From the IMG/VR virus record IMGVR_UViG_3300045988_110668: a stretch of DNA of 63,351 bases; one strand, 5' to 3'. This document shows positions 8,575 through 37,804 of this stretch, in pieces. The stretch's first letter is position 1. Each line of letters begins with the position of its first letter. Under the pieces are notes generated by a model. That model had not been told where the DNA came from. It did no database searches and saw nothing but the letters and a program-made list of their open reading frames with translations. This DNA is from a virus. The position numbers and the translations under genes were made by a program.

Positions 8575-9410
8575 TGTTCAATACCGACAACACCATTCTC
8601 TTGTAGAACCTTCGGAGACTTCAAGGAAGGAGTACCGGTTGCTGTGATAACCAAATTTCCATTCTCAAATTTAACAGCGGACACCTCACCATCAAAACAA
8701 GTTGTTGCACCTTCAGCCAGTACCGCACCAAAGAAAGAAGTGATATCCAGATTTCCAAAGTGCTCTTTCAATTTATAATTGTTCTCTCCGGTATCCAGTT
8801 TTACAAGTTCAACATATACAAGGCCTTTCAAGGCTTCCACTACATCGAACTTATATACACGGTAATCAGCATTTTTCACATACTTCTCATAGTCCTTGAA
8901 CATTGTGCCTACCGTTAAATTAGCCTCGGTACCGGACGAATCCCAATCTTGGCCACCCGGATATATACCAGCAAGAGGAATACCGGCTAAAATATCAGTC
9001 CCGTCATTCATCCCATAAACAACATTGTTTTCATCCACGAAATAGGCATCAAAAGCCACTCCTTTAGCAGCCATGATATTTGCCTTTAAACTGGCGTCAT
9101 ATTCATCGACAGTCCACACATCATCTTTTGCTGAATACGAAGTGATTTTATTTGGACCGTAACCGACAGCGTTTTTATTCGCTTCACCGCCAGAAGGTGC
9201 GTATTCAATAATGGTTTTAATCGGAAAGATTCGATTTGGTCTATCATCGTGACAAGCAGCCTCCAGTAATTCAGCAGTCGCATTTGCCGGTAGCTTATAA
9301 CCATGCATAGTCAATATAATAGCCTTTACCTTTCCGGGATCAAGCAAACATTTTGAGGAACCGGTATTAAACTGAGCTATACCAGCACATTCTCTAAGTT
9401 CTATCGCCAT
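8562..9410 (-). CDS. Putative major tail (tube) protein
   Basis: 282-aa beta-rich ORF after the connector genes and before the tape-measure region. The call is based on position only. Confidence 0.45.
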   Translation of the reverse strand: MAIELRECAGIAQFNTGSSKCLLDPGKVKAIILTMHGYKLPANATAELLEAACHDDRPNRIFPIKTIIEYAPSGGEANKNAVGYGPNKITSYSAKDDVWTVDEYDASLKANIMAAKGVAFDAYFVDENNVVYGMNDGTDILAGIPLAGIYPGGQDWDSSGTEANLTVGTMFKDYEKYVKNADYRVYKFDVVEALKGLVYVELVKLDTGENNYKLKEHFGNLDITSFFGAVLAEGATTCFDGEVSAVKFENGNLVITATGTPSLKSPKVLQENGVVGIEQWKA

Positions 9411-30413: not shown

Positions 30414-30444
30414 CACTCAAATTTCAAAATACCAAATGAAAATC

Positions 30445-34619: not shown

Positions 34620-34928
34620 CTATTTTACATTGATATACTTATTTAAATCAATCGTAGCCAAAGCTTGTTTAATCTCCAATCTGGAATAGCATACAGGAGA
34701 ATTTTTACCTATCCCTTTTCTTTTGCCTTTTATTAATCCTTCTGATTCCATTTTGTTTATATATGAAGGATCGATACCAAGAACCTTGAACCATCTAACC
34801 AACTCTCTTGTGCTTATATTATCTTTCGTTGGTTCATAAACTTTAATAGCCTTCATGTACCCAACTTGAACCATATCAGCCATAATGTTTTTTAATTGAT
34901 ATAAATCTAGCTCTAGCTTTGTTTTCAT
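34620..34928 (-). CDS. Putative small DNA-binding (excisionase/HTH-like) protein
   Basis: Track ORF. ..STRELVRWFKVLGIDPSYINKMESEGLIKGKRKG.. looks HTH-like. Confidence 0.4.
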   Translation of the reverse strand: MKTKLELDLYQLKNIMADMVQVGYMKAIKVYEPTKDNISTRELVRWFKVLGIDPSYINKMESEGLIKGKRKGIGKNSPVCYSRLEIKQALATIDLNKYINVK

Positions 34929-34959
34929 AGCTATTGTGTATTACTACATGAATTATAAA

Positions 34960-35193
34960 TTAGTAGTTTCTTACTACATCAATATATCCAGCTTTCCGGT
35001 TTGTTAGCACTGAATATAGTGATTGGTCTTTTTCAGTTATTCTATCTATTTTAGCCAATCTATTTAAGTCAGATACACATCTACGAAGTTGTATAACTAA
35101 TGTATCACTAAAATTGTAACGAATTGAGTCTTCTTTTTTTCTCAATTTCTTTTTTATTTCTGCTCTTTCTTTAATTTCTTTTCTTCCTGCCAT
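34960..35193 (-). CDS. Hypothetical basic protein (77 aa)
   Basis: Track ORF. Confidence 0.5.
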   Translation of the reverse strand: MAGRKEIKERAEIKKKLRKKEDSIRYNFSDTLVIQLRRCVSDLNRLAKIDRITEKDQSLYSVLTNRKAGYIDVVRNY

Positions 35194-35221
35194 AACTATT
35201 AAAATTTAAATTATTGACTTG

Positions 35222-35293
35222 TGGACGTAACTGGATTCGAACCAGTAATAAACCAACTGGGCAGGTAATCTCATGCACTGCCACTTTACGCCC
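35222..35293 (-). ncRNA. tRNA-like RNA, 72 nt (acceptor plus T-arm, no cloverleaf)
   Basis: 5' GGGCGTA pairs with 3' TACGTCC (one G-U). T-arm is ACTGG-TTCGAAT-CCAGT. Internal hairpin GGCAG-N13-CTGCC. Confidence 0.5.
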
Positions 35294-35382
35294 GTTTGCC
35301 TGTATCACGTCAGATACAGGACTTAATCGAAACACGAATTTTCACACATAAAACAGCTATTCTCCCGAACCGCATACCTATA

Positions 35383-35544
35383 TCACTTTTCTCTCTTTAG
35401 TCTCTTTTGGTGCTTTTCCATGTATATGGAACATAATGCAAATACAGCAAACGAAAGCCAAAATACAATATTCATTTCGTTTGCAAGCAATACTGTTAAT
35501 GCAAACGATATTGCCCAAATTCCTAATAGTGGAGTACGTTTCAT
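35383..35544 (-). CDS. Small two-helix membrane peptide (53 aa)
   Basis: My translation: MKRTPLLGIWAISFALTVLLANEMNIVFWLSFAVFALCSIYMEKHQKRLKREK. Confidence 0.4.
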   Translation of the reverse strand: MKRTPLLGIWAISFALTVLLANEMNIVFWLSFAVFALCSIYMEKHQKRLKREK

Positions 35545-35569
35545 AATATTAATTATTTGATTATTATTG

Positions 35570-35651
35570 TGGACGGAACCGGAGTCGAACCGGTCTCACG
35601 GAATATTGGTGCACCTCACCGCAGTTTCAGCCATGATATACACATCCGCCC
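35570..35651 (-). ncRNA. tRNA-like RNA, 82 nt (acceptor plus T-arm, no cloverleaf)
   Basis: 5' GGGCGGA pairs with 3' TCCGTCC (one G-U). T-arm is ACCGG-TTCGACT-CCGGT. Contains an internal palindrome GGTGCACC. Confidence 0.5.
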
Positions 35652-36078
35652 GATTAATTAAAAAAGTGCACTATCTTCACAGACCGTACACTATACAACA
35701 CACAAACACAAAATAAAACACTACATAAAAGTGCCCTACCCGATTCTCACTACCGGATGTCAGTTTCAAACTGTCAGTAGGGCTATATTACAATCAGCGT
35801 ACGGACGCCTATTCCCGTTTTCTTACTGATAAAGACGATGTTTTTCAGACTGATTTTTTCGATATATTACTTACTCACGTTGCTTCCTTCCGCTCATATC
35901 ATCGCTGGTTGGCTATTACGCTATACTCCGCCTCGGCTATAATGCTTATTAGCGCAGGCTACTTTAACGTGCCCTGAACACGGCTTCATTTTTGAGGGTT
36001 AAGCCTCCCATCCCGAATTAGGATTCATCGGTTTACCGTTATGCTCTGAAAGCGTTTCGCTCGCTTCTTCCGTAGGTT
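35652..36078 (-). ncRNA. ORF-free, relatively GC-rich segment with many local helices (candidate structured ncRNA; the alternative is an origin region)
   Basis: No ORF of 60 aa or more in any frame from 35194 to 36078. Helices include GCCCTAC/GTAGGGC (35733-39 / 35777-83) enclosing CAGTT/AACTG. Confidence 0.3.
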
Positions 36079-36264
36079 CTAACCTAACAGAGATTCGTAA
36101 AATTTTATACTTTCCAAAAAGGAATCTATAATTTCACTTTTAGTTTTATTACTTTTCGCCAATTTCCTAACAGTGGATTCATCATAAGTTTCTAAGTCTT
36201 TCACATATTTACGAAGAAAGACTAATTGATTATTTATATATTCTATATCCATAATTACCTCCAA
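36079..36264 (-). CDS. Hypothetical protein (61 aa)
   Basis: Track ORF. Confidence 0.5.
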   Translation of the reverse strand: MEVIMDIEYINNQLVFLRKYVKDLETYDESTVRKLAKSNKTKSEIIDSFLESIKFYESLLG

Positions 36265-36533
36265 GAACTATCACGATTTATATAATCAGCATGATTCCCG
36301 GTAAAGAACGCTTTCAATACATTACCTTCTTTTTTAGGAAACTCCGGCTTATATGACTTCTTTTCCTCTTCAATCTCTCTATATTCTTTTTGTTGTCTCT
36401 TTGCCAAGAACCAATCCTGTTTCAATGCTTCACTCAAAGAAATACGACGATACGCTTTCAAGATGTGAGCGTGTTTCATTATCTCACTGTTATTGAAATT
36501 TCCGGTTTCTGTCAAAAATGTAAATGCGTTCAT
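36255..36533 (-). CDS. Hypothetical early protein (92 aa)
   Basis: Track ORF; the first gene leftward of the operator region. Confidence 0.55.
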   Translation of the reverse strand: MNAFTFLTETGNFNNSEIMKHAHILKAYRRISLSEALKQDWFLAKRQQKEYREIEEEKKSYKPEFPKKEGNVLKAFFTGNHADYINRDSSWR

Positions 36534-36610: not shown

Positions 36611-36666
36611 CAAATATACTATAAGAAATTATACTATCAAAATATATACTATAAATAATTATAGTA
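36611..36666. promoter_or_regulatory. Operator array: TATACTATMA x3 at 15-bp spacing plus an inverted TTATAGTA, overlapping a -7 box
   Basis: Repeats at 36615-24, 36630-39 and 36645-54. The inverted copy is at 36659-66. CAAATATA lies at 36611-18. Confidence 0.6.
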
Positions 36667-37387: not shown

Positions 37388-37804
37388 ATGGAAAGAGATG
37401 AACGTTTTTTAGAAGTGATTAATGAACTTCAAATTACAGCTTATACGCTTGAAAAAGAAAATGGTATAAAAAATGCGCAAGCCAAAGTGTCTCATTACAA
37501 AAAAGGAGTAACCAAAAGTATATCTTCAGATATAATAGTTGGGCTTTGTGAGGCATATCCGCAAGTTAACGCTAATTACATTCTCACCGGCAACGGCCCC
37601 ATGTTCAAGGAAGAACAAGCCACTCAAAACATTAACGAACATTCACAAGTAATACAAATAGACAACACAAAACAGGTAAGACACATGCTGGATGTTATAA
37701 ATGAACAACAAAAAACGATAGAAAACCTAACAGAATATATCAAAAAGATAGAAGGAAACCCGAAAAGAAGTATAGAAAACAAGAAGGATGGTATGACCGC
37801 ATAA
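37388..37804 (+). CDS. CI-like repressor (HTH)
   Basis: ..FLEVINELQITAYTLEKENGIKNAQAKVSHYKKG.. is an XRE-type HTH. It is the only long + strand gene in the lysogeny region and is divergent from the early genes. Confidence 0.6.
   Translation: MERDERFLEVINELQITAYTLEKENGIKNAQAKVSHYKKGVTKSISSDIIVGLCEAYPQVNANYILTGNGPMFKEEQATQNINEHSQVIQIDNTKQVRHMLDVINEQQKTIENLTEYIKKIEGNPKRSIENKKDGMTA

Follow-up and report, generated by a model that had tools for sequence, protein, structure and literature searches.

A conserved, structured non-coding RNA locus with DUF2693-FD as its 3' domain in the early operon of a temperate Bacteroides phage

The DNA analysed here (the window) is the whole 63,351-nt stretch of IMG/VR virus record IMGVR_UViG_3300045988_110668, and corresponds to a temperate siphovirus-like phage of ~60 kb that carries terminase, portal, major head protein and tail genes. 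Its nearest terminases are those of Bacteroides fragilis phages, and a near-identical copy of the RNA described below, with the same gene order, is found in a 61.9-kb circular element ("plasmid") of the cultured B. thetaiotaomicron strain BFG-119 (NZ_CP103284.1); blastn with the locus gave no match among INPHARED phages. The RNA belongs to a minus-strand early operon, where it is placed between the immunity region and the delayed-early genes. The operon continues into genes for a RecE-like exonuclease, a VRR-NUC resolvase, an antirepressor, a DnaD/O-like initiator and methyltransferases.

Within this operon, positions 35194-36078 (885 nt) form the window's longest span without an ORF of at least 60 aa in the ORF list, as a preliminary description of the same DNA had stated; the gap at 1201-2224 in that list is longer, but it is filled by a 699-codon frame leaving the window's left edge. 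TAA, TAG and TGA all break every frame of the ORF-free stretch on both strands. The G+C enrichment that had been estimated by eye was borne out and is modest (0.424 in 35652-36078 and 0.449 in 35733-36046, versus 0.375 in the whole window and 0.27-0.36 in the immediate flanks). With an MFE z-score of -0.37, the 526-nt stretch is not separable from shuffles, and folding energy by itself does not single out the region. Since the neighbouring genes are all on the minus strand, the element must be read on that strand; the preliminary description had read its pairs on the plus strand, and the Rfam match presented below lies on the minus strand. The size then proposed, ~430 nt, is reduced to about 310 nt, the last ~70 nt of the interval being a U/G-rich spacer and a terminator-like hairpin. 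The features of the locus are the following:

40041-38647: integrase gene, beside a 3' fragment of a tRNA-Gly(CCC)-like gene
37388-37804, plus strand: repressor-like gene
36611..36641, minus strand: TTTG-N-TAnnTTTG, a promoter-like motif preceding the 92-aa ORF; no other such motif lies closer to the RNA on its upstream side
36255..36533, minus strand: 92-aa ORF whose N-terminal ~40 aa resemble the DUF2693/WYL_2 N-terminus; candidate partner of the RNA
36079..36251, minus strand: 57-aa ORF starting with ATG, with GGAGG upstream, conserved in position and ending ...LLG*
36047..36078, minus strand: type-a leader, containing a weak hairpin (36067-36049)
36046-35733, minus strand: proposed whole RNA, ~310 nt (core A, M2 and DUF2693-FD)
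36046-35860, minus strand: core A, a highly conserved structured domain of ~185 nt without Rfam match
35793..35830, minus strand: M2 hairpin, AUCAG...CUGAU around ACGG/CCGU
35789-35784, minus strand: junction motif AUAUAG, directly before DUF2693-FD
35783-35733, minus strand: DUF2693-FD (RF02926), a three-way junction forming the 3' domain
35732-35693, minus strand: U/G-rich spacer between DUF2693-FD and the terminator-like hairpin
35692-35660, minus strand: terminator-like hairpin AGUGUAC-GG-UCU-GUGA-AGA-UA-GUGCACU, with a GNRA loop, followed by U6
35651-35570, minus strand: tRNA-shaped RNA #1, with a 7-bp acceptor stem, G3.U70, A73, a canonical T arm and an aberrant central arm
35383..35544, minus strand: conserved hydrophobic 53-aa ORF between the two tRNA-shaped RNAs
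35320-35299, minus strand: hairpin CCUGUAUC/GAUACAGG, followed by CAAAC and then by tRNA-shaped RNA #2
35293-35222, minus strand: tRNA-shaped RNA #2, with G3.U70 and A73
29065-28139, minus strand: DnaD/O-like replication initiator gene, 7 kb from the RNA

DUF2693-FD, which is Rfam family RF02926 and comes from the motif set of Weinberg et al. 2017, is the sole Rfam family found in the whole window (56.5 bits against a gathering score of 44.5, model positions 1-49 of 49, E 1.5e-10 for the whole window), and scores 57-78 bits among relatives. Its fold has two hairpins on a closing stem of 7 bp, and the bases that join them (UGAC..., ...AGCGAGAA...) are conserved. Aligned to the consensus structure, the window's copy has zero non-canonical pairs, and its MFE structure (-17.6 kcal/mol, z -2.6) reproduces the fold; the GCCCTAC/GTAGGGC pairing with its inner hairpin, already noticed by inspection, corresponds to the outer stem and first hairpin. 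A search of 34900-36400 at E<=10 with permissive filters detected none of the families named in the preliminary description (GOLLD, ROOL, HEARO, group I/II introns and tmRNA) and, beyond DUF2693-FD, nothing of note but a sub-threshold tRNA at 35293-35222. Likewise, the whole window yielded no GOLLD or ROOL match at gathering score. RNase P and riboswitches were also considered and rejected, with no Rfam match.

Relatives were retrieved with the 92-aa ORF as query (59 related IMG/VR loci), with DNA patterns taken from the ORF-free stretch (many more loci from IMG/VR and ENA/JGI gut metagenomes) and with an FD-motif pattern (63 further FD-bearing loci). The 5' domain, core A, is present in ~274 of the retrieved loci, derived from IMG/VR, ENA/JGI gut metagenomes, a Bacteroides MAG and strain BFG-119, and these reduce to 54 distinct versions. 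A second metagenome scan gained just three new variants, and scans built to leave out the common core-A types returned chance matches or none. The 54 versions represent only four or five independent types, and the covariation events are consequently few.

In phages where the neighbouring 57-aa gene fell to 62-68% nucleotide and 40-55% amino acid identity, core A retains 89-99% identity; conservation of such a degree, above that of the genes around it, usually signals a specific macromolecular partner or a catalytic fold. Its 5' border is sharp, with three unrelated upstream contexts meeting at one base: the leader a of the window and, in other relatives, either an unrelated leader (b) or, in the group designated B, a hairpin plus a tRNA-shaped RNA that stops 8 nt upstream of core A. 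The AGCG-TTT-CGCT hairpin of the preliminary description does exist, but is present in just one of the two alternative leaders. In group B, everything from the tRNA-like element through the junction is conserved together, as one block whose outer borders are sharp, conservation ending immediately past the junction element. Moreover, two fixed sites carry indels (13, 14 and 31 nt), each forming its own hairpin, which is the behaviour of expansion segments of a structured RNA and not of a gene; the 13- versus 14-nt indel that distinguishes otherwise near-identical group-B copies was counted in favour of a non-coding nature.

A 22-codon ATG frame (MKPCSGHVKVACANKHYSRGGV) with GGAGG upstream lies within core A and could be taken as a trace of a decayed or recoded protein-coding gene. 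However, the substitutions in this frame are mostly non-synonymous and covary with bases upstream of its ATG, the 13-, 14- and 31-nt indels fall inside it, and the region is conserved far above the real genes nearby. Coding, recoded stops included, was ruled out as a candidate by stops of all three kinds interrupting each frame, and this reading is very unlikely, its probability being close to negligible.

The model of core A has 37 base pairs, arranged in an H-type pseudoknot and eight other helices, with two sites for expansion hairpins, and includes the following elements:

36031-36028 / 36016-36013, minus strand: helix P2, CCGA/TCGG, essentially invariant and kept in 53 of the 54 versions
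36009-36007 / 35998-35996, minus strand: S1 (GGG/CCC), forming the H-type pseudoknot with P3
36004-36001 / 35986-35983, minus strand: P3, with all four pairs altered on both sides and 100% paired
35983..36009, minus strand: the H-type pseudoknot, GGG-AG-GCUU-AA-CCC-UCAAAAAUG-AAGC
35982-35979 / 35971-35968, minus strand: P4, essentially invariant
35954-35951 / 35932-35929, minus strand: P5, which with P6 closes the first expansion hairpin
35945-35944 / 35937-35936, minus strand: P6a, which with P5 closes the first expansion hairpin
35921-35918 / 35880-35877, minus strand: P7, in four types (GCGU/ACGU, GCGU/GCGU, ACUG/CAGU and UCUG/CAGA)
35913-35904 / 35893-35882, minus strand: P8a-c, a rod whose internal loops are conserved and whose tip is either the loop GAUGAUAUGA or the second expansion hairpin

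In the curated alignment of the 54 versions, whose 3' domain was curated with an eye to the helices and anchored on their proposed strands, the 37 pairs are 94-99.8% paired, as opposed to 12-52% in slid controls, and compensatory (double) changes are found at 14 of them. In the alignment designated A1, 99.6% of the cells pair (27-51% in slid controls), five pairs are altered on both sides, and the observed covariation was reached by none of 500 shuffles; the covariance model R1 gives 121 bits on 36032-35943. The individual pairs of P3 vary as GC/AU/GU, CG/AU/UA/GU, UA/GC and UA/CG, and in S1 the G36009-C35996 pair becomes U-A in one version (L311). RNAalifold, applied to automatic and curated alignments, chose GAGG/CCUC-type local pairs, missed P3 and did not recover the model, which was therefore built by hand from covariation, and in a covariation scan of all columns against one another the correlation at the level of types masked any signal. 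The GAGG/CCTC pairing of the preliminary description is contradicted by the covariation, which backs the GCUU/AAGC plus GGG/CCC pseudoknot, whereas its CCGA/TCGG pairing was retained as P2. Two further hairpins, ATCCT/GGGAT and GCAA-CCGA-TTGC, were dropped when group-B sequences and constrained folds favoured P2 and P8.

The compensatory changes keep G-U pairs valid on the minus strand only, which argues for an RNA rather than a DNA element. A DNA-level function (for instance as replication origin, recombination site or protein-binding site) would suit a stretch that is ORF-free and conserved, that contains three loosely similar TAGCC-N-GCG words (35960-35905) and that coincides with a hot spot of mosaic exchange. 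Yet the repeats of the region are only two-copy and at chance level, with no iteron family or tandem array, the stretch is above average in GC and no AT-rich tract was found in it, the initiator gene is situated away at 29065-28139, and a curated RNA family lies inside the stretch. The replication origin that had been offered as the alternative is very unlikely, and a DNA-level element of any of these kinds is hardly credible. By contrast, the other proposal of the preliminary description, that of a structured non-coding RNA near tRNA-like elements in a temperate phage, is supported by strong covariation. It can be considered established that the interval is a conserved, structured, non-coding RNA locus with DUF2693-FD as its 3' domain, and the best explanation is that it constitutes the non-coding tail of a minus-strand transcript made early by the phage.

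In every core-A type, core A is followed, in invariant order, by an element of several helices that a 7-8-bp stem closes (z -2.4 to -3.4 in all types), with AUAUA before and (C/A)AC after. This element is DUF2693-FD in the window and in type 2, and elsewhere belongs to at least four unrelated sequences of similar shape, none of them detected by Rfam. The linkers between core and junction can be as short as ~10 nt (...UAAGUCAACAUAUAU-CCCGCAC in L244), and in the BFG-119 version the connection is made via ...UAAGUCAACAUAUAU. M2 is optional, being missing from some relatives (L217/L244-type) and placed differently in others (downstream of DUF2693-FD in other phages); GCGT-ACGG-ACGC, as listed in the preliminary description, is not conserved, relatives retaining ACGG/CCGT. 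DUF2693-FD in turn occurs without core A in more than 60 loci, is sometimes duplicated in tandem, and also flanks other conserved non-coding cores that start with AUUGAUUAGYUCUUUGAC. The core-A covariance model found no copy, diverged ones included, in 66 FD-bearing or neighbour loci. An HNH endonuclease gene sits between M2 and DUF2693-FD in two relatives (L019/L031), ORFs too can be inserted between modules, and the AUAUA(G) motif repeats at module joints. The free assortment of modules and the position of the HNH gene were counted against the reading of the locus as one RNA. The fixed order of core and junction, taken together with the exchangeable parts and the insertions, points to a modular RNA with a fixed order of parts and not to a single monolithic fold.

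The terminator-like hairpin starts 40 nt past DUF2693-FD (-12.7 kcal/mol, z -3.9, 0 of 200 shuffles), and its stem covaries in L061 and L044; it was not listed by a simple consensus terminator scan because of its internal loop. Its loop sequence is conserved, and the same GUCUGUGAAGAU hairpin recurs beside another tRNA-shaped RNA, at ~31225-31205, which suggests a role tied to those RNAs rather than termination. The preliminary description had the interval flanked by tRNA-like RNAs, and this holds for the downstream side, where the two tRNA-shaped RNAs lie 80 and 440 nt from the RNA, but not for the upstream side. The acceptor and T stems of the first covary in L088, and the hairpin preceding the second (-12.3 kcal/mol, z -4.2) covaries in L061. 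Both have intact acceptor and T arms and lack a normal anticodon arm. In Rfam the first matches only tRNA-Sec, with 16.7 bits against 47, and the second matches tRNA with 25 bits against a gathering score of 29. ARAGORN called no tRNA or tmRNA gene, neither of the tRNA-shaped RNAs included, and in relatives the equivalent RNAs are called 'tRNA-???' with 4- or 2-base anticodons. G3.U70 together with A73 constitutes the alanine identity set; these anticodon-less RNAs, many with the alanine identity pair, represent a second feature of the locus.

On the upstream side, a link with a protein family is suggested by synteny. In FD-only loci, the gene two ORFs upstream of DUF2693-FD is a clear match to PF10902 (WYL_2, formerly DUF2693, an Sm-like barrel; E 1.5e-17), which explains the name of the motif. 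The 92-aa ORF of the window has no Pfam hit. With hhalign, it matches WYL_2-bearing proteins with a probability of 64.5% (E 6e-5), in an N-terminal portion outside the Pfam WYL_2 domain, and the 103-aa ORF found upstream of group-B RNAs with 91.8% (E 7.5e-7); both ORFs share a helical N-terminal region with the WYL_2 proteins of FD loci. The 92-aa ORF resembles DUF2693 proteins weakly, and the synteny between the RNA and WYL_2-type genes is suggestive, though no proof of a ribonucleoprotein. PDB and PHROG searches with the associated proteins gave nothing informative.

TTTG-N-TAnnTTTG is the Bacteroides-type promoter consensus. As a consensus match only, it occurs 14 times in the window versus 3.4 expected, and on the minus strand it is found at 37373-37340, at 36641-36611 and next only at 30436, with none between 36611 and the RNA in the consensus scan. 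With such motifs only upstream, the RNA is probably co-transcribed with the 92-aa and 57-aa ORFs.

The most likely model, to which we attribute about an even chance, is that of a stable RNA released from the early transcript and acting by binding a protein. The RNA would be co-transcribed with the two small ORFs from the promoter-like site at 36641-36611 and excised from the early transcript, with the adjacent tRNA-shaped elements possibly serving as RNase P/Z cleavage handles and the 3' junction as an exonuclease-resistant cap. It would then accumulate stably and act in trans via protein binding, the partner being perhaps a conserved factor of the host or else the protein related to DUF2693/WYL_2 (Sm-like fold) whose gene is the second one upstream, presumably for host takeover or counter-defence in early infection.

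Against this stands the possibility of a cis-acting early-operon RNA, comparable to lambda nut or HK022 put, that would mediate antitermination at 35692-35660: alone or with the small upstream protein, the RNA would modify RNA polymerase and allow read-through into the recombination and replication genes. As in those phages, the RNA follows the first small genes of the early operon and precedes a terminator-like hairpin located before the recombination and replication genes; it has the immunity region on one side and the delayed-early genes on the other, the gene directly upstream encodes a small conserved protein, and a strong hairpin with U6 is placed only 40 nt downstream. The extreme sequence conservation would also suit binding to a conserved host machine, and no Bacteroides-type promoter motif is present on the minus strand between 36611 and 30436, so that the downstream genes appear to depend on read-through, although the promoter scan is a consensus match only. 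However, group-B and BFG-119-type copies run straight into ORFs with no adjacent terminator-like hairpin, and the GUCUGUGAAGAU hairpin has its second occurrence by another tRNA-shaped RNA. The nut and put sites are much smaller and simpler, this RNA being several times larger, more elaborate and without sequence similarity to them. A cis-acting role is thus regarded as possible but rather unlikely. The same degree of doubt applies to an array of independent small RNAs (core A, M2, DUF2693-FD and the tRNA-shaped RNAs), each separately processed from a polycistronic precursor, like the stable RNAs of the T4 tRNA cluster, and each with its own role. Such an array would account for the free recombination of modules (DUF2693-FD alone, in tandem or flanking other cores, and M2 downstream of it elsewhere), for the lack of core A in the 66 loci scanned with the covariance model, for the ORFs and HNH gene between modules and for AUAUA(G) at their joints. 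It is less easily reconciled with the invariant order of core A and junction across core-A types, with linkers of only ~10 nt (L244), and with the group-B block, conserved as a unit with sharp borders from the tRNA-like element to the junction. A broader proposal, less probable again and no more than speculative, is that gut Bacteroides phages possess an RNA cassette system of interchangeable cores in shuffled standard parts, with core A as a ribozyme or decoy. The cargo may comprise core A and at least two other cores that start with AUUGAUUAGYUCUUUGAC, and the parts may be tRNA-shaped scaffolds recruiting RNase P/Z and possibly alanyl-tRNA synthetase, AUAUA joints, and FD-class three-way-junction caps. 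Core A, with its invariant junction bases and pseudoknot, may then be a ribozyme or a high-affinity decoy of a host defence or translation factor, and may work alongside the Sm-like WYL_2-family protein.

Among known RNAs, the preliminary description had favoured one comparable to GOLLD and ROOL, an idea that did not hold, since no Rfam relative of either was found at E<=10 and the RNA is ~310 nt long and modular, with the known DUF2693-FD as its 3' domain. GOLLD and ROOL are borne by phages or prophages, have complex pseudoknotted folds and often lie beside tRNA genes with which they are possibly co-transcribed (PMC5737381). The likeness resides in the temperate phage with an integrase, the pseudoknot and the adjoining tRNA-shaped RNAs. 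In contrast, GOLLD and ROOL have ~580-800 nt with several multistem junctions and pseudoknots, whereas one pseudoknot and one three-way junction are present here; their hosts are Firmicutes and others, instead of Bacteroides; and the present RNA is much more conserved in sequence and has exchangeable modules.

The T4 tRNA gene cluster encodes the stable RNAs species 1 and 2 and has an inserted homing-endonuclease gene. By analogy, the locus would resemble it in having non-tRNA stable RNAs co-transcribed and co-processed with tRNA or tRNA-like genes in an early or middle region, and the free-standing endonuclease gene of the T4 cluster has its counterpart in the HNH ORF of L019/L031. There is no homology between this RNA and the T4 ones, and the T4 neighbours are real decoding tRNAs, whereas the anticodon arms are abnormal here. 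With tmRNA, the RNA shares a pseudoknot beside a tRNA-shaped element that has G3.U70 and A73; that element is, however, self-contained and not built from the ends of the large RNA, and a tag reading frame is absent. A tmRNA was rejected, with 0 genes from ARAGORN and no match to Rfam tmRNA.

As for DUF2693-FD itself, the phage is here too one of Bacteroides, and in FD-only loci the motif lies downstream of a PF10902 gene, but the Rfam family comprises a 49-nt junction filed as a stand-alone sRNA, whereas the window's copy makes up the 3' domain of a larger RNA, and other core-A copies have similarly shaped junctions of unrelated sequence in its place. While DUF2693-FD was already known, Rfam 15 contains neither core A nor the variant junctions, nor the connection between FD-class junctions and larger modular RNAs. 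In the literature searched, DUF2693-FD or similar phage RNAs appeared only in the 2017 motif paper and in a WYL-domain paper, with no paper on core A, on the FD-junction linkage to larger RNAs or on the variant junctions. An orphan 49-nt motif since 2017 can now be viewed as the terminal domain of larger modular phage RNAs, and core A as a new pseudoknotted core under very strong constraint, common among Bacteroides phages of the human gut. The near-identical copy in the cultured B. thetaiotaomicron strain (NZ_CP103284.1) opens the RNA to direct tests, as it does the way the RNA is processed and the part it plays in infection or lysogeny.

Three RNAs of tRNA shape are encoded in the window, all with perfect acceptor and T arms and none with a normal anticodon arm:

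35651-35570, minus strand, tRNA-shaped RNA
35293-35222, minus strand, tRNA-shaped RNA
31193-31005, minus strand, tRNA-shaped RNA of 189 nt, including an insert of ~150 nt

Such molecules also occur in the loci fetched for comparison (L001-L350), where 113 distinct tRNA-shaped sequences devoid of a normal anticodon arm were found, ranging in length from 63 to 167 nt. The G3.U70 pair and A73, which together form the alanine identity set, are both present in 33 of the 113, and some relatives are reported by ARAGORN as "tRNA-???" with anticodons of 4 or 2 bases. The window has two copies of a hairpin whose loop carries the conserved sequence GUCUGUGAAGAU, each immediately 5' of a tRNA-shaped RNA:

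35692-35666, minus strand, GUCUGUGAAGAU-loop hairpin
~31225-31205, minus strand, GUCUGUGAAGAU-loop hairpin

Its repetition directly 5' of two such RNAs points less to a plain terminator than to a signal for processing or recognition.

In related phages, the slot of core A (the conserved pseudoknotted domain), between the leader or the DUF2693-FD RNA (FD) and the M2 hairpin module/FD, can be taken by further conserved non-coding cores of ~180-300 nt with the 5' start AUUGAUUAGYUCUUUGAC (L184, L161, L131, L175, L127, L185, L166 and L180), for which no Rfam match at gathering score was obtained in the loci scanned. In L019 and L031, an HNH homing-endonuclease-like ORF (MNGKTVNRKIHVLVADAFIG...HINGNKKDN...) interrupts the non-coding RNA locus between M2 and FD. 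A small hydrophobic ORF is kept among relatives and always lies inside the RNA island, either between tRNA-shaped RNAs or immediately 3' of the multi-helix junction element:

35544-35383, minus strand, 53-aa hydrophobic ORF (MKRTPLLGIWAISFALTVLLANEMNIVFWLSFAVFALCSIYMEKHQKRLKREK)

One relative, "plasmid unnamed1" of B. thetaiotaomicron BFG-119 (NZ_CP103284.1; 61.9 kb, circular; L244 is its segment 30981-37170), is a phage genome of the window's group, and its PLSDB gene table skips locus tag NXY23_RS24510 exactly at the position of the RNA and the tRNA-like element. In L195, a match to the Rfam RT-17 RNA (8990-9066, minus strand; scoring 41.5 bits where the gathering score is 40.4), ~2.7 kb away from the core-A copy of the same contig, hints at a nearby reverse-transcriptase element.

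A tRNA-like fragment adjoins the integrase gene (40041-38647):

~40225-40172, minus strand, 3' ~50 nt only of a tRNA-Gly(CCC)-like gene

This fragment, comprising the anticodon stem-loop, T arm and acceptor strand, probably serves as the attP core through which the phage integrates into the host tRNA gene; L260 carries a complete tRNA of host type whose 3' half is the same. Regarding transcription, matches to the promoter consensus of Bacteroides, TTTG-N17-23-TAnnTTTG, are about four times as frequent in the window as expected when consensus matches alone are counted on both strands (14 versus 3.4), the majority being located upstream of minus-strand genes.
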